Source: Chthoniobacterales bacterium
Lineage (GTDB): Bacteria > Verrucomicrobiota > Verrucomicrobiia > Chthoniobacterales > Chthoniobacteraceae
NCBI GenBank assembly: GCA_038260125.1
Contig: JBBSOD010000001.1
Location: 1-26,637, forward strand
Length of the DNA: 26,637 nt
Direction: 5' to 3'
Position numbers and translations under genes: made by a program. This document shows positions 1,720 to 10,388 of this stretch, piece after piece (position 1 is the stretch's first letter; every line of letters begins with the position of its first letter). A model generated the notes under the pieces. It was not told the DNA's origin and did no database searches. It worked only from the letters and a program-made list of their open reading frames with translations.

Positions 1720-2058
1720 ATGCCTGACGGCCAGAACAAACCACCGAGCTTGGCGCGAACGATGCAAACCTTCGCGTCGATGCTGTGCATCGTCGAATCG
1801 CTCGGGGAGAAAGTGGATAAGATGTCCGCGCAGCTTGAAAAGCTCTACGCGCGGAGCAACCAATCGCAGACTCTCATCGCAAACGGTAAGCGCGAAAAAG
1901 AATTCTACACCGTGAAGGAAGTCGCCGAAGCCATCGGCACGAGCGACAAATCCGTGCGCCGACTCCAAAAGCGCGGATTCTTCAAAAGCAGCAGCGCTCT
2001 CCGAACCAAGCAAATCCCGCGTTCCGAAATCGAACGCTATAAAACGGAGACGGTCTAG
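1720..2058 (+). CDS. Excisionase-like / MerR-type HTH DNA-binding protein
   Basis: C-terminal FYTVKEVAEAIGTSDKSVRRLQKRG...IPRSEIERY matches the xis/HTH_17 pattern. Located next to the integrase. Confidence 0.75.
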   Translation: MPDGQNKPPSLARTMQTFASMLCIVESLGEKVDKMSAQLEKLYARSNQSQTLIANGKREKEFYTVKEVAEAIGTSDKSVRRLQKRGFFKSSSALRTKQIPRSEIERYKTETV

Positions 2059-2959
2059 AGCGTGTTCTGGACTTTGGGTTTGTAAATAAGGCTGTACTTT
2101 ATAATTGCCATTATGCATCACGCTGTGGATGGTAAAAAAGAAGTTCAAAACCGGCAGCGGAAAAACGAGCTATGCTAGCGATGTCACTGACGAGGAGTGG
2201 GCGTTCTGCGCACCCTATTTGACGTTGATGAAAGAGGACGCGCCGCAGCGAGAGCACTCGTTGCGGGCGGTCTTCAACGCCGTGCGCTACCTTGTTCGAG
2301 CAGGCTGTCCTTGGCACATGATTCCCAACGATTTTCCGTCCGGGTCAATCGTCTACCAGCAAGTTCAGCGCTGGATTGCCGCAGGTTGCTTTGAGACCCT
2401 GACGCATGATCTGCGCAAGCTGTTGCGCATGTTGGCCGACAAAACCGCCGAGCCTTCGGCGGCCATTCTTGACGGGCGCACCTTGCAAAGCACACCGGAG
2501 AGTGGTGAGCGCGCAGGCTATGATGGATACAAGCGCAAGAAAGGCTCGAAGGTGCATATCGCTGTCGACACGCTCGGCCACCTGCTTGCTTTGAAGGTCA
2601 CCCCTGCCAACGAGCAGGAGCGCGCCCAAGTCGAGGATCTCCTCAAGGAGGTTCAAGAGGTTACCGAGGGCAGTGTGAAAGCGGCCTTTGTCGACCAAGG
2701 CTACACGGGCGCGGAACCTGCCGCCCAAGCCGCCAAGCACGGCGTGGAATTGATCGTCGTCAAACTCGCCGAAGCCAAGCGGGGATTCGTCCTACTGCCA
2801 AGACGCTGGGTGGTGGAGCGCTCCTTTGCCTGGGCCAGTCGTTTCCGCCGACTGGCGCGGGACTACGAAAGACTACCGACTTCAGTCGCAGGTCTTCACT
2901 GGCTCGCATTCCTTACTCTCATGCTGCAATCTCTCCTCCGCTAAAGTTCAGAATACGCT
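2059..2959 (+). mobile_element. IS5-family insertion sequence (~900 bp)
   Basis: 17-bp TIRs AGCGTGTTCTGGACTTT (2059-2075) and AAAGTTCAGAATACGCT (2943-2959) match at 15/17. Flanked by CTAG at 2055-2058 and 2960-2963. The boundary is ambiguous by 1 bp (CTAG vs TA duplication). Confidence 0.92.
2129..2944 (+). CDS. IS5-family DDE transposase
   Basis: YASDVTDEEW N-terminus, AAILDGRT, AFVDQGY and LPRRWVVERSFAW...RRLARDYE motifs. ATG 2129 preferred over TTG 2105. Confidence 0.93.
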   Translation: MVKKKFKTGSGKTSYASDVTDEEWAFCAPYLTLMKEDAPQREHSLRAVFNAVRYLVRAGCPWHMIPNDFPSGSIVYQQVQRWIAAGCFETLTHDLRKLLRMLADKTAEPSAAILDGRTLQSTPESGERAGYDGYKRKKGSKVHIAVDTLGHLLALKVTPANEQERAQVEDLLKEVQEVTEGSVKAAFVDQGYTGAEPAAQAAKHGVELIVVKLAEAKRGFVLLPRRWVVERSFAWASRFRRLARDYERLPTSVAGLHWLAFLTLMLQSLLR

Positions 2960-4078
2960 CTAGGCGGCTTTCGCTCCGCTTTCGAGTGGCAGAACTCGGG
3001 GGCCATCGAAAGCTTCAAAGGACATCTTCTCGGCCATTGCGGCGCTGTAGTCCGCCCGCAAATGGCCGTAGGTCTTGGCGACCAAAGTTCCGCCGTCCGA
3101 ATGTCCGAGCCAGTCGGAGATGACTTTGAAATTGATCCCGCTCTCGATTGCGTTGGAGGCAAAAAAATGCCGCAGGGAATGCACGGAGAACTGTTTCAAT
3201 CCCGCCCGCTTGCAAGCCAGCTTCATCGCGCCACGAGGGGAGTCGATGTCAAAAACCCGCTCGCTCATGTCGGTTGAGTCGTGAGCGGCGATCAGGCGCA
3301 CGAGAAGATTTCGCAGGTTTGGAAAAAGCGGGATGACGCGCTCTTGATGATTCTTCGTGCCCAACTCGCCTCCGGTAATCAGCACGCTTCCGGCTTCAAG
3401 GTTCACGTCTTCAAATCGCACTTCGCGAGCCTCGCCAACGCGCATCCCGCTGTAGGCGAGAAATTCGACCATCGCCGTCGCGCCGGACGCAACGGCCAGC
3501 GGAGCTTCACGAAGCGTTTTCACCAATGACCGAAATTCTGCGTGGCTCGGGAGTTCGATTATCGACTTCGGCTGCTTGCGGCGCTTGAGCTTTTCCGCGG
3601 CATTCTCCAACACGATTCCCCGATCCACGGCATAGCGGAGAATGAGTTTCAGGGTTTCAAGCTCGATGTTGTGACTCCGCGCGGAAACCGTCGCTCCGCG
3701 TTTGCGCTTCCAGGCGTCGATTTCAGCGAAGCCAATCGCCTTCACGGACATCCCGCGAAAGAACGGCGTCAGCCCGACGAGCGCGACGCGCCGACGGTCG
3801 TAAGACTTCGGCTTGAGGCCGGACTTGATCGACGCGAGCCATTCTTCCGCAAGTTCCTCGAACCGGATGTTCCGATTCTCCTCGCCCTCCAGCCGCTCGG
3901 CTTTCACGCGAAATTCCCCCAGCCGCCGCTTGGCAATCGCGAGGTCTGTGGTGTTGAGCGAACGTCTGATTTGCTTGCCGTTGACCTTGACACGGGCGTA
4001 GTAAACCTTGTTGCCGTTCCGGTAGAGGCACTCTGCGGCCTTCTTAAACTCCTGCGACTTTCCGAGCATCTGATTCAT
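2960..4078 (-). CDS. int: Tyrosine recombinase / phage-type integrase
   Basis: Catalytic set present: YSGMRVGEA (R), TKN (K), HSLRH, LGH and KTYGH (Y). N-terminal arm-binding-like YYARVKVNGKQIRRSL. Start set at ATG 4078 (alternative 4069). Confidence 0.93.
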   Translation of the reverse strand: MNQMLGKSQEFKKAAECLYRNGNKVYYARVKVNGKQIRRSLNTTDLAIAKRRLGEFRVKAERLEGEENRNIRFEELAEEWLASIKSGLKPKSYDRRRVALVGLTPFFRGMSVKAIGFAEIDAWKRKRGATVSARSHNIELETLKLILRYAVDRGIVLENAAEKLKRRKQPKSIIELPSHAEFRSLVKTLREAPLAVASGATAMVEFLAYSGMRVGEAREVRFEDVNLEAGSVLITGGELGTKNHQERVIPLFPNLRNLLVRLIAAHDSTDMSERVFDIDSPRGAMKLACKRAGLKQFSVHSLRHFFASNAIESGINFKVISDWLGHSDGGTLVAKTYGHLRADYSAAMAEKMSFEAFDGPRVLPLESGAKAA

Positions 4079-4659: not shown

Positions 4660-5892
4660 CTAGCGCGACAGCCATGCGCTGGCGAAGAGCCACACCGAGG
4701 CCGCGCCAGCCGTCAGCAGCAGGATATAGCGGCGGCGCCAGCACAGCTCGACGGCCAGTCCGGCCAGGATGAGGGCAAAGGGCACCAGATAGCCCGAGCC
4801 TGGAAGGGATGAAACGAAGGCGGAGCGCGTAAGGAGCGAGTGCCCGACCATCTCGGCCAGCAACAGCGTCGCGCCCGCGATGGCCAGGATGCACGCCGCG
4901 ACATATCCCGCCCCGCGCCGCCGCTGGAAGGTAAGCATATTGACCACCGCCCCGCAGGCCAGTGTCCACCCGGCCCACCAGCCCAGATCGGCCTGCGCAA
5001 TCCAGATCTCGAAGCGGAAGCGATCCGGCTCGGGATACGCCGTCGGGTTCAGCCGGGCGAGCGTCCCGCCAAAAGCCTCCAGCGCTGCGGCGAAGGCCGC
5101 CGGATCGGCTCCGCGGAAGGCCTGCTTCATCCGCTGCAACGACTCTGGCACGGACTGACCGAGGGGGCCGGGATAAAGCGCGGGAGCGTCTTCCGCCGGC
5201 CGCCACTCGCCTCCGGCGCGCGGCGGCACTACCCGCAGTGCGCTGCCGTCGCGGATCTCGCGGAACGCTTCCAGCCGCCGCGCCAGACCGAGGACCAACC
5301 GCTGCCGGCGCGACAAGGCGGCCGGCCCGCTCCCGGCGCGCGTCGCCCGGGCGTCGGCGACCAGTTCTGGGAGCCGGGTGCGCCGGGTCAGCGTCTCGTA
5401 GGTCTCGCGGGACGCCGCCTCGGGCAGGCCTAATGCGCGCCGCAGGTCGGCATCGTTCACCTGAATGAGAGGCTGGTCGGTCCAGCTTTCGGGGTTCAGC
5501 CAAAGCGACGCGATGACCGTCGTAGCGGACAATTCGTCGTAAATGGAATCGCGATAGCTTTCTGAGCCGGAAATCGCGGCCAGCTTCTGACGGGCAAAGA
5601 AATAGAACGGACCGGGCCGGCCCTCGACGAAGACCGGCAGCTTTTCGAGCGGATCCAGATCCATGCGCGCGGGCAGGATGCTGCGCGGGGGCGTCGAGGG
5701 CTGTTGCGGCGGAGTCGGCGTGGCACCCGGCGAGGGGGCCGCCGGGGTGGCGGGCGTGGCCGTGCCTTTCAGCGTGTCGGTTTTACCCTTCGGTTCCGCA
5801 GCGCTTGCCCCACCCAGGATACCCAGAATTATTGCGAGCCCGAGCGCTTGGCCCCCCAAGGCTCGAGCTAGGAAGTCGCGGGCGGATACCAT
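4660..5892 (-). CDS. CcsA/CcsBA-like membrane protein containing only the N-terminal periplasmic part and first TM helices; no WWD domain
   Basis: Signal peptide, then LPVFVEGRPGPFYFFARQKLAAISG, LRVVPP...W and YPEPDRFRFE, resembling the periplasmic domain of fused system II cytochrome c synthases, then ~4 TM segments and a stop. ATG 5892. Confidence 0.55.
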   Translation of the reverse strand: MVSARDFLARALGGQALGLAIILGILGGASAAEPKGKTDTLKGTATPATPAAPSPGATPTPPQQPSTPPRSILPARMDLDPLEKLPVFVEGRPGPFYFFARQKLAAISGSESYRDSIYDELSATTVIASLWLNPESWTDQPLIQVNDADLRRALGLPEAASRETYETLTRRTRLPELVADARATRAGSGPAALSRRQRLVLGLARRLEAFREIRDGSALRVVPPRAGGEWRPAEDAPALYPGPLGQSVPESLQRMKQAFRGADPAAFAAALEAFGGTLARLNPTAYPEPDRFRFEIWIAQADLGWWAGWTLACGAVVNMLTFQRRRGAGYVAACILAIAGATLLLAEMVGHSLLTRSAFVSSLPGSGYLVPFALILAGLAVELCWRRRYILLLTAGAASVWLFASAWLSR

Positions 5893-6329
5893 CGGTAGAG
5901 CATCAGATACACGATCACGCCCGTCACGGAAACATACAACCACACCGGCAGCGTGATCCGCGCGATTCGACGGTGTTTATCGAAACGCCGACGCAGGGCC
6001 GGAATCAGCGTGAGCATCACCAGCACCGGCGTGATGGCCGCCAGCACGACGTGCGTAAGCAGGATGACTTTATAGAAGATTTCCGGCGCACCCCCGGCCG
6101 TGAAACGAGTCACCAGCCCCGCCTTCAGCCAGTGATAGGTAACGTAGCTCGTCAGAAAAAGGGTCGAGACCGCCACTGCGCTCAGCATGCAGGTCACGTG
6201 CGCCGCGATCTGCCGCCGCCGGATGAAAAACCACCCGGCACAGAGCAAAACCGTCGCGATGGAATTCAGCGTGGCGTTGAGTCCCGGCAGCATTTGCTGA
6301 TAAGGCGTCAGGATTTCGCGCAGGCTCAT
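5868..6329 (-). CDS. DUF420 / CtaM-like oxidase assembly membrane protein
   Basis: LPGLNATLN...AHVTCM...FLTSYVTYH...ILLTHVVLA...HRRIARITLPVWLYVSVTGVIVYLML. ATG 6329. Confidence 0.9.
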   Translation of the reverse strand: MSLREILTPYQQMLPGLNATLNSIATVLLCAGWFFIRRRQIAAHVTCMLSAVAVSTLFLTSYVTYHWLKAGLVTRFTAGGAPEIFYKVILLTHVVLAAITPVLVMLTLIPALRRRFDKHRRIARITLPVWLYVSVTGVIVYLMLYRWYPPATS

Positions 6330-6330
6330 A

Positions 6331-6987
6331 TTACTGCATCGCCTGGCCGATGTCCTGGGCCAGTTGCCGCACTTCCTCGATTTTTGTGGCGTCGTAGTAA
6401 CCGCGGATGTTGCCCGCACGATCGACCAGGATCAGACGGTTCGTCGGATTCAGGGCAAGCGCGGGATTTTCCCAGTCCGGCGCGCGCGGCAACCGGAAGC
6501 CTGCACTCATCACGCGCCCGATCTCCGCCCGTTCTCCGGTGAGGAAGACCCACTGTCCCGTTTTGCGATGCTTGCGCGCGTATTCGCGGAGCCGCGCGGG
6601 CGTCTCGCGCTCCGGGAAGCGGGAAAACGTGACGAGCTTGGCCTGCGGCAGGTTCGCGATGACATTCTGCAACTCTTCCAGCCGAAGGACGACGAGCCTC
6701 GATTCCTTGTCTTCGCCCGCCGTGGCGAAGCTCGCGACCCACGCGTAGCCGCGCAAATCCTCGGATCCGAACGGGGTGCCGTCGCTGTCCTGCAGCGAAA
6801 ATTCGGGTGCCGGGCTATAGACCGCCAGCGACCTCACCTCGGTCTGGCGCGCCCGGTCGGCCTTGTAATAAACCGTGGCGACAGCGAAGAGCACCAGCAC
6901 GACATGCAGCCAGAGCAGCGCCGGGAACCAGCGGTTCGCGGGGCGCGCCGGGGCCATGTCATCGTCGATTTCCAGCGTCTCTCCCAT
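6331..6987 (-). CDS. Sco1/SenC-fold protein lacking the copper ligands
   Basis: N-terminal TM and Sco patterns (APEFSLQDSDG, WVASF, PERETPARLREYA, WVFLTG, ILVDRAGNIRGYY). The protein has no Cys. Confidence 0.85.
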   Translation of the reverse strand: MGETLEIDDDMAPARPANRWFPALLWLHVVLVLFAVATVYYKADRARQTEVRSLAVYSPAPEFSLQDSDGTPFGSEDLRGYAWVASFATAGEDKESRLVVLRLEELQNVIANLPQAKLVTFSRFPERETPARLREYARKHRKTGQWVFLTGERAEIGRVMSAGFRLPRAPDWENPALALNPTNRLILVDRAGNIRGYYDATKIEEVRQLAQDIGQAMQ

Positions 6988-6990
6988 CTT

Positions 6991-7902
6991 TTAGAAATGC
7001 ACGAAAACCATCAGACCCAGAATCACCGGCAGATAAACGATCGACGAGAAAAAGAGCCTCCGGGCCGAAGCGCGGGAGCGGTCGGTCACGAAGCGGACTG
7101 CGTAGTAAAGCAGCAGTCCGTCGATGGCCAGCGCGATCCCGACATACACGAGGCCCGCCCACCCCAGAGCGAAAGGCATGAGCGTCACACCCGCCAGGGC
7201 CACCGCGTAAAGCAGCGATTTCCAGGCCGTGGCCGCGCCGTCGGTGTCGCGCACGTTCAGCATGTGGAAGCCCGCCTGCGCATACTCGTCGCGATACATC
7301 CAGGCGATGGCGAGAAAATGCGGAATCTGCCAAAGAAAGAGCACGCCGAAGAGAATCCACGCCCCCGCGCCCGTGGCCGGTCCGCCGGCGGCCGTCCAGC
7401 CGATAACCGGCGGAATCGCCCCCGAGACCGCGCCGACGGTCACACAGACCGGGCTGACCCGTTTCAGCGGAGTGTAAATCGCGAGATAGATCAGCAGCGT
7501 GGCTGCCGCCAGGAGCGTCGCGGTCGGATTCGTGGTGAAGGCCAGATAAGCCAGCCCCGCCACTCCGCACGCCGCGCCGAGAGCGATGGCCTGCTCCGAC
7601 CGCCAGCGCCCGGCCGGCAGCGGACGGGCCTTCGTCCGTTCCATCAGCCGGTCCACCCGCACCTCGATCGCCTGATTCAGGATGGCCGCCGCCGCCGCCA
7701 CCAGCGCCGTGCCCACCAGCGTGTGCAGCAGCCGCACCCAGTCCAGCGGGCCCGGCGACGCCAGGCAGAAGCCGACGAAAGTCGTAATCAGCATCAGGAG
7801 ATTAAGGCGCGCCTTGGTCAGAACCATCAGGTCAGCCATCATGCTGGCGTCATCCGTTTCCAGGAGGGGCTCCTCTACCGTGCGCGAGATTTCGCTTTTC
7901 AA
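6991..7902 (-). CDS. ctaB: Protoheme IX farnesyltransferase (heme O synthase)
   Basis: LTKARL, NQAIEVRVDRLMERTKARPLP, YTPLKR, GAIPPVIGW and WQIPHFLAIAWMYRDEY. TTG start overlaps the ctaA stop (TTGA); ATG 7842 is the alternative. Confidence 0.93.
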   Translation of the reverse strand: MKSEISRTVEEPLLETDDASMMADLMVLTKARLNLLMLITTFVGFCLASPGPLDWVRLLHTLVGTALVAAAAAILNQAIEVRVDRLMERTKARPLPAGRWRSEQAIALGAACGVAGLAYLAFTTNPTATLLAAATLLIYLAIYTPLKRVSPVCVTVGAVSGAIPPVIGWTAAGGPATGAGAWILFGVLFLWQIPHFLAIAWMYRDEYAQAGFHMLNVRDTDGAATAWKSLLYAVALAGVTLMPFALGWAGLVYVGIALAIDGLLLYYAVRFVTDRSRASARRLFFSSIVYLPVILGLMVFVHF

Positions 7903-8861
7903 GCAGCGCCCTCCGCTACGGAAGATTCGGGTCCATTCGCGAAACGCGCACGGTGGCTCCCGATCCCGTTCGCCGCCAGCGCCAGCCGCGTGCGAAGAGC
8001 GGCTGCTGTGGCCAGGATGAGAGCGCCGTTCACGACATGGAAGGTGGTCGGAACGGGCGCTTTTGCAAGCCAGATGACACTCGCCCCCAGCATGACCTGC
8101 AAGAGCACGAGACCAAGGAGCAGGCAGGCCGGGCGCAGCAGCCTCCCCTCCCCGCGGGTCGTGCGCACCGCGGCCACCGTGAGCGCGAAGATGGTCCCGA
8201 GAACGACCAGAGCGCCGATCCGGTGAGTGAAATGGATGATGACTGGAAACGTGTCCAGCGGTGGAATCCAACCTCCGAAGGATGTCGGGAAATCAGGGAT
8301 GATCAGCCCCGCTTTGAAGTGCCGCATGATCGCGCCGACGACAAGTTGAGCGTAAACCACCACGATGGCCAGCGACGCCAGACGGGTCAGGCCGGCACGC
8401 TCCCGGCCGGAGACATCCCGGCGCGGCGACAAGGCGGTCGCCAGCACCACCAGTCCGGCCAGGACGGCCTGCGCCAGACACCCGTGAAACACCGCCAGCG
8501 AGAGCGAGCGTTCCGTCACCCTCAGCCCGCCCAGCACGCCCTGCACGCTCACGCCAAGCAGGGCCGCGATCGCCAGCCAGCGCACCCAGCGACGGCTCTC
8601 CGTGCGCCATGTCCAGATGGTTAGTCCGATAATGAGCAGCCCGAGCGTCGAAGCGATCAGCCGGTGTCCGTGTTCCAGGCGGACATTCTCGATCTGCCAC
8701 CAGCCGGCGGGGTTGATGCTCCCGTAGGATAGCGGCCAGTCCGGCACGGCCATGCCGGCCTGTTTACTCGTGACCATCCCGCCCACGAAGATGAGTGCGA
8801 GGGTGAAAAGAACACAGAGCCAGGCAAAGCGCGCGAGCCAGACGGAGCGGGGCGGGTTCAT
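7899..8861 (-). CDS. ctaA: Heme A synthase (CtaA/Cox15), type without the N-terminal Cys pair
   Basis: GGMVTS..AGMAVPDWP, EHGHR, FHGCLAQ, HFTHR and FHVVNG; 8 TM segments. Confidence 0.92.
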   Translation of the reverse strand: MNPPRSVWLARFAWLCVLFTLALIFVGGMVTSKQAGMAVPDWPLSYGSINPAGWWQIENVRLEHGHRLIASTLGLLIIGLTIWTWRTESRRWVRWLAIAALLGVSVQGVLGGLRVTERSLSLAVFHGCLAQAVLAGLVVLATALSPRRDVSGRERAGLTRLASLAIVVVYAQLVVGAIMRHFKAGLIIPDFPTSFGGWIPPLDTFPVIIHFTHRIGALVVLGTIFALTVAAVRTTRGEGRLLRPACLLLGLVLLQVMLGASVIWLAKAPVPTTFHVVNGALILATAAALRTRLALAANGIGSHRARFANGPESSVAEGAA

Positions 8862-9173: not shown

Positions 9174-10139
9174 CTATTCCTCCCGCGCCGGGGCGGGCTC
9201 GCCAGCGGATTCTGCTCCTGCTCCGGGCTGCCGCGCGGAGGTCGCGGCGGCGTCTTCGTTAGCCGGAGGCAAAGGCTCCTTCACCTGCGCGGCGGCGGGT
9301 TGCTCAGAAGGCTCGAAAGTCGTGCCGCCCTGCGCGGCGGGCTGCCCGACATCCTGCGGCTCACCGGGCGAAGGTGCGGTCTGGCCCTGCGGGGCAGGTT
9401 TGGGAATCAGCGCCGCCATGTCCGTCTGCCACTTGCCGTAATCCTCCGCCGTGTCCACCGTCAGCAGGCCGCGCATAGCGTAATGCCCCAGTCCACACAA
9501 CTGCCCGCAGATAATTTCGTATTCGCCCGCTTTCGTCGGCGTAAACCACACCGGAATCATCTGCCCGGGAATCGCGTCCTGCCCCACCCTCATCGCCTGG
9601 ATGGAGACGTTATGAATCACGTCCTTGGCCATGATCTCCAGAATGACTGGCTTGTTCAGCGGGGTGTGCAGATCGTTCGTCACCACTAGATCGTCCGCCC
9701 CTTCCGGCGTGGAACGGTCGAGTCCGATCGCGTTCGAGGCATCGACGAGTTCGATCTTGCGCGGCCCGAATTTTTTGTCCGCGCCGGGGTAGTGAAAGAT
9801 GAAGTTGAACTGCTGCGCGATCACCCGCACGCGTTCCGCCTGCTCCACCGGAAACTCGTTCACCCGTTTCGCCCAGAGCGGAAAAGCGAACCCGATCAGC
9901 AGCACCGCTTCCACGATCACCACGCTCACTTCCAGGTGCGTCGTGATTTTCGTCTTCGCACCGTAGTAGTTCGCACGGGGATGGCGCGATTTGTGAAAAC
10001 GGAAGAGGACATAGACCAGAAAAATACTCCAGCCCATGAGCAGGATGAGCACTTTCCAGTGCACAAACTCCAGCATCTGATCGATGTGGATGCCGTGCTG
10101 AGAAGCATTGGGAATGAGGCCGAGAAGTCTGTTCAGCAT
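9174..10139 (-). CDS. coxB: Cytochrome c oxidase subunit II (CuA) with Pro/Ala/Gln-rich C-terminal tail
   Basis: Two TM helices, DVIH and CGQLCGLGHYAM CuA motif. Confidence 0.95.
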   Translation of the reverse strand: MLNRLLGLIPNASQHGIHIDQMLEFVHWKVLILLMGWSIFLVYVLFRFHKSRHPRANYYGAKTKITTHLEVSVVIVEAVLLIGFAFPLWAKRVNEFPVEQAERVRVIAQQFNFIFHYPGADKKFGPRKIELVDASNAIGLDRSTPEGADDLVVTNDLHTPLNKPVILEIMAKDVIHNVSIQAMRVGQDAIPGQMIPVWFTPTKAGEYEIICGQLCGLGHYAMRGLLTVDTAEDYGKWQTDMAALIPKPAPQGQTAPSPGEPQDVGQPAAQGGTTFEPSEQPAAAQVKEPLPPANEDAAATSARQPGAGAESAGEPAPAREE

Positions 10140-10154
10140 TTCTAAATATCGAGG

Positions 10155-10388
10155 CTAGGCGGAATCAGTGGGCGGCAGGCCGTTCGAATGGCGGCCGAGA
10201 TAGACCATAAAAACGACGATGCACGCGAGCACGACCCCGAGCACCGCCAGCAGGGCCAGGATGGCGTAACTGAGTGCCTTGGTGTCGGCGGAAGTGGGCG
10301 AGCCGAAGCAGACGGCGCAGGCCTGCGCGGAACCAGTCAGCCCCATCCAGAGCAGTGCAGTCAGCAGCAGAGTCCATCGCGCGCTCAT
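10155..10388 (-). CDS. Small exported membrane-anchored CxxC protein of unknown function
   Basis: Signal peptide ending SAQA, then CAVCFG, then one TM helix. ATGA-coupled to the upstream gene. Confidence 0.8.
   Translation of the reverse strand: MSARWTLLLTALLWMGLTGSAQACAVCFGSPTSADTKALSYAILALLAVLGVVLACIVVFMVYLGRHSNGLPPTDSA

Follow-up and report, generated by a model that had tools for sequence, protein, structure and literature searches.

A Sco-family protein that lacks the copper ligands, in an oxidase-biogenesis operon of a Chthoniobacterales bacterium

Sco proteins are defined by a CxxxC...H site, and every mechanism that has been proposed for them, whether as copper donors or as thiol reductases, relies on this site. 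Here we describe a Sco-like protein that lacks the site. It is encoded within a 26.6-kb window, which is an entire contig from a metagenome-assembled genome (MAG) of a soil Chthoniobacterales bacterium. (The MAG is 84% complete with 4.5% contamination, and all of the sequences in this study are from MAGs or metagenome contigs.) The gene, which we call sco*, lies in the biogenesis part of an operon for a cytochrome oxidase with a CuA site. Its product, P0001, is a pseudo-Sco that has very probably been kept under selection. Our overall explanation, to which we give a probability of roughly 55%, is that this pseudo-Sco acts as a copper-independent adaptor during the biogenesis of the oxidase.

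Identity and fold of P0001

The gene and the parts of its product that matter for this analysis are:

6331..6987, minus strand: ligand-less Sco/SenC-fold protein (P0001), 218 amino acids, Cys-free, with an N-terminal tail, a single transmembrane (TM) helix, and a thioredoxin-like Sco domain that is periplasmic by homology
6700..6714, minus strand: former CxxxC position, E92-D-K-E-S96, at the N-terminus of helix alpha1 (from alignments to canonical relatives)
6442..6453, minus strand: former His position, N179-P180-T181-N182, in the loop that precedes the LILVD strand (from alignments)
6862..6930, minus strand: N-terminal membrane anchor helix, residues ~20-42, with a conserved W-x-H-[VL]-[VI] motif (from the AlphaFold2 helix at 20-49 and conservation in the clade)

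The open reading frame at 6331-6987 is uninterrupted by stops, and none of the 218 residues is a cysteine. When P0001 is aligned to 18 canonical relatives, WVASFATAG-EDKES-R matches W[IV]ADFI[FY]T[TS]-CPGPC-P without gaps, with E92 in place of the first cysteine and S96 in place of the second. The canonical histidine (in HS[TS]R-[LIV]LVD) aligns to P180 with MAFFT or to N179 in the HMMER alignment to 4hde. Whichever alignment is used, there is no His within residues 165-183. Because both cysteines and the histidine of the copper site are gone, P0001 should be unable to bind copper in the manner of Sco or to perform thiol-disulfide chemistry. In other words, the sequence of P0001 indicates that the canonical copper site and the thiol chemistry have both been lost.

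Except for the missing ligands, P0001 resembles other Sco proteins. It matches PF02630 (SCO1/SenC) with 34.2 bits, above the cut-off of 22.8 (E = 2.9e-8), and the match covers profile positions 2-133 of 134. With phmmer, it matches the Sco proteins of Bacillus anthracis and B. subtilis in the PDB (E = 8e-8 to 8e-7). A search of NCBIfam found no significant family. The AlphaFold2 model, from an alignment with 22 rows, has a pLDDT of 90.1 and consists of a thioredoxin-like domain that is preceded by a hydrophobic helix (residues 20-49). When this model was compared to the PDB with Foldseek, the top matches were all Sco proteins: 4hde (E = 9e-14, TM-score 0.84 by target), then 1xzo, 4wbj, 1wp0, and 6n5u. 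More broadly, P0001 shares with the bacterial Sco/SenC/PrrC/YpmQ proteins (B. subtilis Sco, 1xzo/1on4; B. anthracis, 4hde; B. diazoefficiens ScoI, 4wbj) the fold (Foldseek E = 1e-13 to 1e-11), one predicted membrane tether at the N-terminus, the FLTG, GF, and LVD..G.IRGYYD motifs, and the slot in the cox/cta operon after ctaB and before DUF420. Unlike them, it has neither the CxxxC pair, nor the histidine, nor any other cysteine. Its fold, profile match, and operon slot place P0001 in the Sco superfamily, but without CxxxC and the His, two features that define a Sco copper chaperone, it should not be annotated as such a chaperone.

The main observation had been made from the letters of the DNA before any database was searched. 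That sequence-only reading described a Sco-fold protein with EDKES in place of CxxxC, a Pro in place of the His, and no Cys at all, and each of these points has held up (with N179 instead of P180 opposite the His in one of the two alignments). The domain is probably in the periplasm, as expected from the canonical orthologues that have the same anchor motif.

Conservation and recurrence of the ligand loss

Among 5.8 billion proteins, we found three close relatives of P0001 (59-65% identity, 220-221 amino acids). All three have open frames and lack both cysteines and the histidine: the CxxxC position is DDKVS, EDRGS, or ETRES, and the former His loop is without any His. These four orthologues (clade 1) are 59-73% identical to each other. 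All four of their loci share the order ctaA-ctaB-sco*-DUF420, followed by the gene for a membrane protein of about 400 amino acids. More distant matches, at 43% identity or less, are all canonical except for a few separate degenerate forms. A scan of 1.84 billion representatives at 50% identity found a single cluster below E = 1e-30. Among 101 genomes from the GTDB family of the window, only the window's own genus has the ligand-less form, in both of its two species.

The four sequences group together in a maximum-likelihood tree (SH-aLRT 99), on a stem of 0.66 substitutions per site and with terminal branches of 0.12-0.23. The ligands of clade 1 were thus lost a single time, in the ancestor of a narrow lineage of Chthoniobacterales, with a burst of change around this loss and then purifying selection. 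At this transition, sco changed faster than its neighbours did. The closest canonical case is the locus L110, whose coxC, coxB, ctaA, ctaB, and DUF420 are 62-75% identical to the genes in the window. The neighbours of the ligand-less sco in L005 are similarly close to the window's (67-76%), while the Sco proteins are 61% identical to P0001 for L005 vs. 43% for L110.

Within clade 1, pairwise dN/dS (Nei-Gojobori) is 0.13-0.29 for sco* and 0.11-0.31 for ctaB, ctaA, and DUF420 from the same contigs; since dS is saturated (1.1-2.0), these values are more like upper bounds than precise rates. The protein distance of sco* relative to that of ctaB is 1.5-1.8, which is within the range for canonical Sco orthologues from the same family (median 1.47, range 0.9-3.0) and thus gives no hint of strong relaxation within clade 1. 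The sequence-only reading had proposed that P0001 was an intact pseudo-chaperone, a view that orthologues with CxxxC and relaxed selection on this copy would have contradicted. None of the three orthologues keeps CxxxC, and dN/dS is like that of ctaB and DUF420, so we view P0001 as a conserved pseudo-chaperone and not as a decaying allele.

Selection has not acted evenly across the protein. The mean pairwise identity within clade 1 is 42% for the former CxxxC loop (residues 88-97) and 24% for the former His loop (167-183, the most variable stretch of the folded domain), as compared to 66-75% for the rest of the domain and 66% for the TM helix. In nine canonical orthologues from the same family, with similar overall divergence, the CxxxC loop is instead the best-conserved part (83% vs. 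56% for the domain). In other words, the former ligand loops of the clade-1 proteins are the least constrained parts and not, as in other bacterial Sco proteins, the most constrained. This implies that the old active site was freed from constraint and was not rebuilt into another precise site. What drifted was only the two former ligand loops; the fold, the anchor, and most of the protein's surface were preserved by purifying selection.

P0001 is a descendant of the Sco that is normal to a ctaA-ctaB-sco-ctaM module for oxidase biogenesis. (The DUF420 family includes CtaM, a membrane protein that is needed for the activity of aa3/caa3 oxidases in Staphylococcus aureus and B. subtilis, at a late step; PMC9145763.) The operon coxA-coxC-coxD-small-small-coxB-ctaA-ctaB-sco, with a canonical CPGPC...H Sco, is found in L007 and L110. 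The slot of sco in the window's gene order matches these canonical operons, and a CxxxC protein occupies the same slot in L007, L110, and about 35 further loci. The L110 Sco (L110:5421-6083), once its start codon is corrected, bears the same RW..WAH anchor motif (RWIVWAHL...) as the ligand-less proteins, and so does the L109 protein, a sister of clade 1. We had considered that this anchor might be a novelty of the ligand-less clade, which the canonical L110 protein rejects. A conserved TM anchor is present in the ligand-less clade, L110, and L109 in place of a lipobox; the canonical orthologues in L093, L095, L097, and L098 look like lipoproteins, with an L-x-G-C lipobox after the signal peptide.

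The pairing of sco with DUF420 is itself widespread. Dozens of loci from Verrucomicrobiota, Planctomycetota, Omnitrophota, Acidobacteriota, Ignavibacteria, and other groups combine the order ctaB-sco-DUF420 with an intact CxxxC. More generally, sco is directly followed by DUF420/CtaM in about 35 of 80 species loci (Verrucomicrobiota, Planctomycetota, Omnitrophota, Acidobacteriota, Ignavibacteria, and Bacteroidota). We therefore rejected the idea that a downstream DUF420 is specific to the ligand-less Sco. That the pair is so widespread suggests that Sco and CtaM are functionally linked, a connection that the review cited above (PMC9145763) does not discuss.

We surveyed 174 relatives for their ligand state. 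A second clade of ligand-less proteins (clade 2) has four members, P0175-P0178, of which P0175 is from L035, in a low-GC, Bacteroidota-like MAG. The gene order in L035 is coxB-coxA-ctaB-coxC-coxC-coxD-sco*-DUF420. Its Sco (5968-6585) has FFSTN-DLQES-KK and AYSPQLVVVD, so that the first Cys is replaced by Asp, the second Cys by Ser, and the His by Tyr; the CuA ligands of its CoxB are intact. The ligand-less relatives P0176-P0178 are 66-85% identical to the L035 protein, and the nearest canonical relative, P0179, is 50% identical. dN/dS between L035 and another clade-2 gene (L116:4802-5419) is 0.107, and both genes are directly upstream of DUF420. The L035 genome encodes three canonical Sco paralogues elsewhere, and all 17 of the related genomes that we examined have a canonical Sco at the slot of the L035 gene.

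Clade 2 resembles P0001 in its slot upstream of DUF420, the loss of all three ligands, the Ser at the second Cys, the acidic residue at the first Cys, a CoxB that retains CuA, purifying selection, and canonical paralogues elsewhere in the genome. It differs in having Tyr in place of the His and P0179 as its nearest canonical relative, and it is only about 25-28% identical to P0001. Because the two clades have separate positions on the tree, the ligands were lost at least twice in bacteria. Across both clades, a Ser is present at the second Cys position in 8 of 8 proteins, and Asp or Glu is present at the first in 7 of 8. Since the loop is otherwise variable, this convergence probably reflects capping of the helix N-terminus instead of a new metal site.

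The survey also turned up several other degenerate forms. P0066 has neither the cysteines nor the histidine, P0123 is Cys-free and keeps the His, and in P0169 the His is replaced by Ser. P0090 (L109:1202-1849), which lies directly after ctaB, is a weakly supported sister of clade 1. It has the WAH anchor, CVTC...S (C-V-T-C-D-G-G-S) at the CxxxC position, and no His, and may have exchanged the CxxxC copper site for a CxxC pair like that of thioredoxin.

The oxidase and its copper supply

The genes on the minus strand of the window encode, in order, alternative complex III (ACIII); a cbb3-like module that is cofactor-less; coxA, coxC, and coxD; a 66-amino-acid TM protein; a 77-amino-acid exported CxxC protein; coxB, ctaA, and ctaB; sco*; DUF420; and the membrane protein of about 400 amino acids. 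The features around sco* are:

10155..10388, minus strand: exported CxxC mini-protein with a signal-like N-terminus, ACAVCFG, and one TM helix; homologues lie between the small TM gene and coxB
9174..10139, minus strand: CoxB (subunit II), PF00116, with the CuA ligands H176, C211, C215, H219, and M222 all kept
7899..8861, minus strand: ctaA (heme A synthase, COX15-CtaA), PF02628
6991..7902, minus strand: ctaB (heme O synthase, UbiA family), PF01040, with a full-length alignment to 303-amino-acid orthologues; directly upstream of sco*
5868..6329, minus strand: DUF420, a CtaM-like membrane protein for oxidase assembly, PF04238 (E = 2e-40)
4660..5943, minus strand: membrane protein of about 400 amino acids with no Pfam family, downstream of DUF420

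Just 3 nt separate the stop codon of ctaB from the ATG of sco*, and 1 nt separates the TAA of sco* from the ATG of DUF420 (TAATATG). With these spacers and an open frame of 218 codons, the gene is intact and embedded in its operon, as had been noticed from the sequence alone.

If the oxidase had lost CuA, then Sco would be unneeded. This explanation is ruled out: all five of the side-chain CuA ligands of the window's CoxB are invariant across 15 relatives, and they are intact in the L005 CoxB as well. Because these ligands are intact, the oxidase still needs its CuA site to be metallated.

CoxB does show some other changes. Two substitutions, at residues 113 and 178, are common to the window and L005, at positions that are invariant in 13 relatives. 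At residue 113, a Trp within QQF-x-W has become Phe; by its position, this may be the Trp through which electrons enter subunit II. At residue 178, two residues past the first CuA His, a Phe has become Val. Among about 37 loci, this Val was at first seen only in the window, L005, and L035, which looked like covariation with the loss of Sco's ligands. We rejected this for clade 2, as all 17 of the L035 relatives combine the Val with a canonical CxxxC...H Sco; within clade 1, both substitutions count as one evolutionary event, in the same lineage as the loss of Sco's ligands. Another feature of this CoxB group is that the CuA loop is C-G-Q-L-C instead of C-x-E-x-C, with the Gln (residue 213) invariant in 15 of 15 aligned relatives. 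In canonical aa3 oxidases, the Glu of this loop also binds a Mg/Mn ion, so that site may be altered across the whole group.

The protein of about 400 amino acids has a signal or TM segment, a linker rich in Pro and Thr, a periplasmic domain, and C-terminal TM helices. Among about 100 loci, the four of clade 1 are the only ones to have it, directly downstream of DUF420 and with 45-59% identity; L110 and other canonical-Sco operons lack it at that position. The ESM Atlas gave only a weak lead as to its identity (Cytochrom_C_asm on 15% of one cluster).

Where might the copper for CuA come from? The window's MAG (G000) contains two further PF02630 genes. One is on contig C14 and encodes a canonical Sco (FTHCPNICP...NHS) that adjoins a PCuAC gene; the tetranucleotide profile of C14 fits the genome. 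The other, on contig C13 (L003:1357-2163, 2013-3122), lies upstream of a caa3-type coxB and encodes a 268-residue Sco (YYRCPMLCG) that has a TM extension at its C-terminus. Of 69 contigs that are similar in size, C13 has the lowest tetranucleotide correlation to the genome. Its cox cluster, the second in this MAG, may be contamination of the bin or a transferred island, and we do not use its Sco as support.

The CxxC mini-protein was another candidate for replacing what P0001 has lost. Homologues (A-C-x-x-C-[FYM]-G plus a TM helix) accompany a canonical Sco in at least 14 operons, including L007, L110, L015, L017, L018, and L020. Because canonical operons carry it too, and it predates the loss, we rejected the idea that the mini-protein is a lineage-specific compensation for the lost thiols. 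It is a conserved and ancestral member of this type of operon, whatever the state of Sco; at least 14 loci, from several phyla, have it between coxB and the gene for the 66-residue TM protein. It may nonetheless handle copper, and it could serve these oxidases as a copper or thiol factor that has gone unrecognised.

Possible roles for a Sco without ligands

Given that P0001 is predicted to be incapable of Sco chemistry, and that selection has kept the gene in the biogenesis part of an operon for a CuA oxidase, P0001 must presumably do a job for the oxidase that is independent of copper and thiols. This task is likely common to the canonical operon Sco proteins as well. P0001 could be a membrane-tethered periplasmic adaptor or holdase that acts by protein contacts within the module for inserting heme A and copper. 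It might hold or position the new subunit II (or subunit I), or it might work with CtaM. The copper for CuA would then come from other donors, namely the canonical Sco and PCuAC encoded on C14, and possibly the CxxC mini-protein. The sequence-only reading had likewise suggested a docking or scaffold role. As to the mechanism, we propose the adaptor tentatively, with somewhat less than even odds. A predicted complex of CoxB (residues 1-245), CtaM/DUF420, and the ligand-less Sco, with an alignment for each, speaks neither for nor against this role (ipSAE 0.00 in both of two runs, which were made without controls).

Redox-inactive domains with a thioredoxin fold can serve as substrate-binding modules, as in the b and b' domains of PDI. 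Like P0001, these domains and ERp29 have a thioredoxin-like fold without active-site cysteines; theirs was kept for binding partners, as may be true of P0001. They are eukaryotic and unrelated in sequence, so the analogy is of mechanism only.

Several points weigh against our explanation. Clade 1 is defined by just four sequences, the charge pattern that flanks the TM helix of P0001 is ambiguous as to topology, and the protein is known from the sequence of a MAG. Canonical ScoI binds CoxB stably only via a bridging Cu2+ that is held by four sulfurs, and no complex with CoxB is formed by apo-ScoI (PMC6669012). Without its cysteines and the ligand histidine, P0001 should be unable to form this Cu2+-bridged intermediate or reduce the cysteines of CuA. 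Since apo-ScoI does not bind CoxB, docking by a copper bridge is unlikely, and a role in holding CoxB would need a different interface. Finally, in another genome from the same genus (G014, 86% complete), we found only the ligand-less Sco, with no other Sco and no PCuAC. So, other donors are supported in G000 and G101 only, and the idea that a canonical Sco serves as a backup throughout the genus is not established.

We considered other explanations for why the gene has been kept. P0001 might have become a permanent accessory subunit of the mature aa3-type oxidase, or of a supercomplex of ACIII and the oxidase. The conserved TM anchor (66% identity, with W26, H28, and V30-L33 invariant) fits with this idea, as do the purifying selection on the fold and surface despite the lost chemistry and the location of the gene in a long co-directional cluster with ACIII, the cofactor-less cbb3-like module, and the oxidase. 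However, the nearest canonical orthologue (in L110) has the same anchor motif, so the anchor is not tied to a new role. Also, sco* is in the biogenesis half of the cluster (with ctaA, ctaB, and ctaM), away from the genes for subunits, and the fold search matched no solved oxidase or ACIII supercomplex beyond Sco itself. We consider an accessory subunit to be unlikely, although it is the most plausible of these alternatives. We give slightly less credence to a function that is wholly outside of the oxidase, with the operon slot being merely historical. This has been proposed for HCC2, a Sco homologue of plants, whose loss leaves cytochrome c oxidase (COX) activity unchanged and alters responses to UV-B and stress (PMC3971200). 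But sco* is within translational-coupling distance of both ctaB and ctaM, the exact slot is kept in four clade-1 and two clade-2 loci, and no gene from another pathway is linked to sco*.

It is less probable still that carboxylates and other residues (E92/D93, S96, H140) form a new metal site, with which P0001 would supply the oxidase with a metal ion or buffer one on its behalf. Such a site could account for the acidic residue at the first Cys position and the Ser at the second in two independent clades, and H140-R141-K142 is invariant in clade 1. Yet the former CxxxC and His loops are the least-conserved parts of the protein, which is not expected of a metal site, and the soluble domain has no conserved Met or Cys and just a single invariant His. 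Also, Asp, Glu, and Ser are good helix N-caps, so stabilisation of alpha1 could explain the convergence. The last alternative, which we think is very improbable, is that sco* is a functionless relic whose frame stays open only so that ribosomes can pass through to ctaM and the downstream gene. The very short spacers on both sides are compatible with this, but coupling constrains only the frame and the ends of the gene, which would not account for a dN/dS of 0.13-0.29 across the whole domain. A relic is also contradicted by conservation that varies by region (72-75% in the core vs. 24% in one loop), by the confident prediction of a native-like fold, and by the same outcome in an independent clade.

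Returning to the pseudo-Sco as a copper-independent adaptor, its closest precedent is HCC2. This Sco homologue of Arabidopsis lacks both cysteines and the histidine, is conserved in plants, and coexists with the canonical HCC1 (PMC3971200, PMC6696091). HCC2 is dispensable for COX activity, and complementation of a yeast sco2 mutant by HCC2 has been reported (PMC3971200, PMC6696091). A 2019 review describes HCC2, with this complementation despite the missing site, as "very surprising" and leaves its function open (PMC6696091). P0001 and HCC2 have lost the same residues, are conserved across a lineage, coexist with a canonical Sco, and have a proposed function that does not depend on copper transfer. 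The two differ in that HCC2 is a dispersed nuclear paralogue, whereas for P0001, it is the operon copy that lost its ligands and the canonical copy that is elsewhere. Because the nearest relatives of P0001 are canonical bacterial Sco proteins from the same type of operon, its loss of ligands was independent of that in HCC2. So, "HCC2-like" would be a functional class and not a clade. In the literature we searched, we found no description of a bacterial ligand-less Sco, only the papers about plant HCC2; the search did not cover the genome-wide survey of Sco proteins by Banci et al. (2007).

These cases lead us to a broader hypothesis, which we hold with some reserve and would not yet bet on: operon Sco proteins may have a second biogenesis function, independent of copper and thiols, that suffices for the gene to be retained if there is another donor of copper. 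Such a function could be, for instance, to connect subunits that have just been inserted to the CtaA/CtaB/CtaM module. On this view, the ligand-less Sco proteins would be naturally occurring separation-of-function alleles, with at least two origins in bacteria and one in plants (HCC2). Comparing the nearest canonical orthologues (the L110 Sco for clade 1 and P0179 for clade 2) to their ligand-less sisters gives a simple experimental handle on this function. For annotation, a match to PF02630 does not imply that a protein is a copper chaperone. More broadly, the ligands were lost at the original position in the operon, under selection, with at least two independent origins, and beside a CuA oxidase, which suggests that a copper-independent role for Sco is general.

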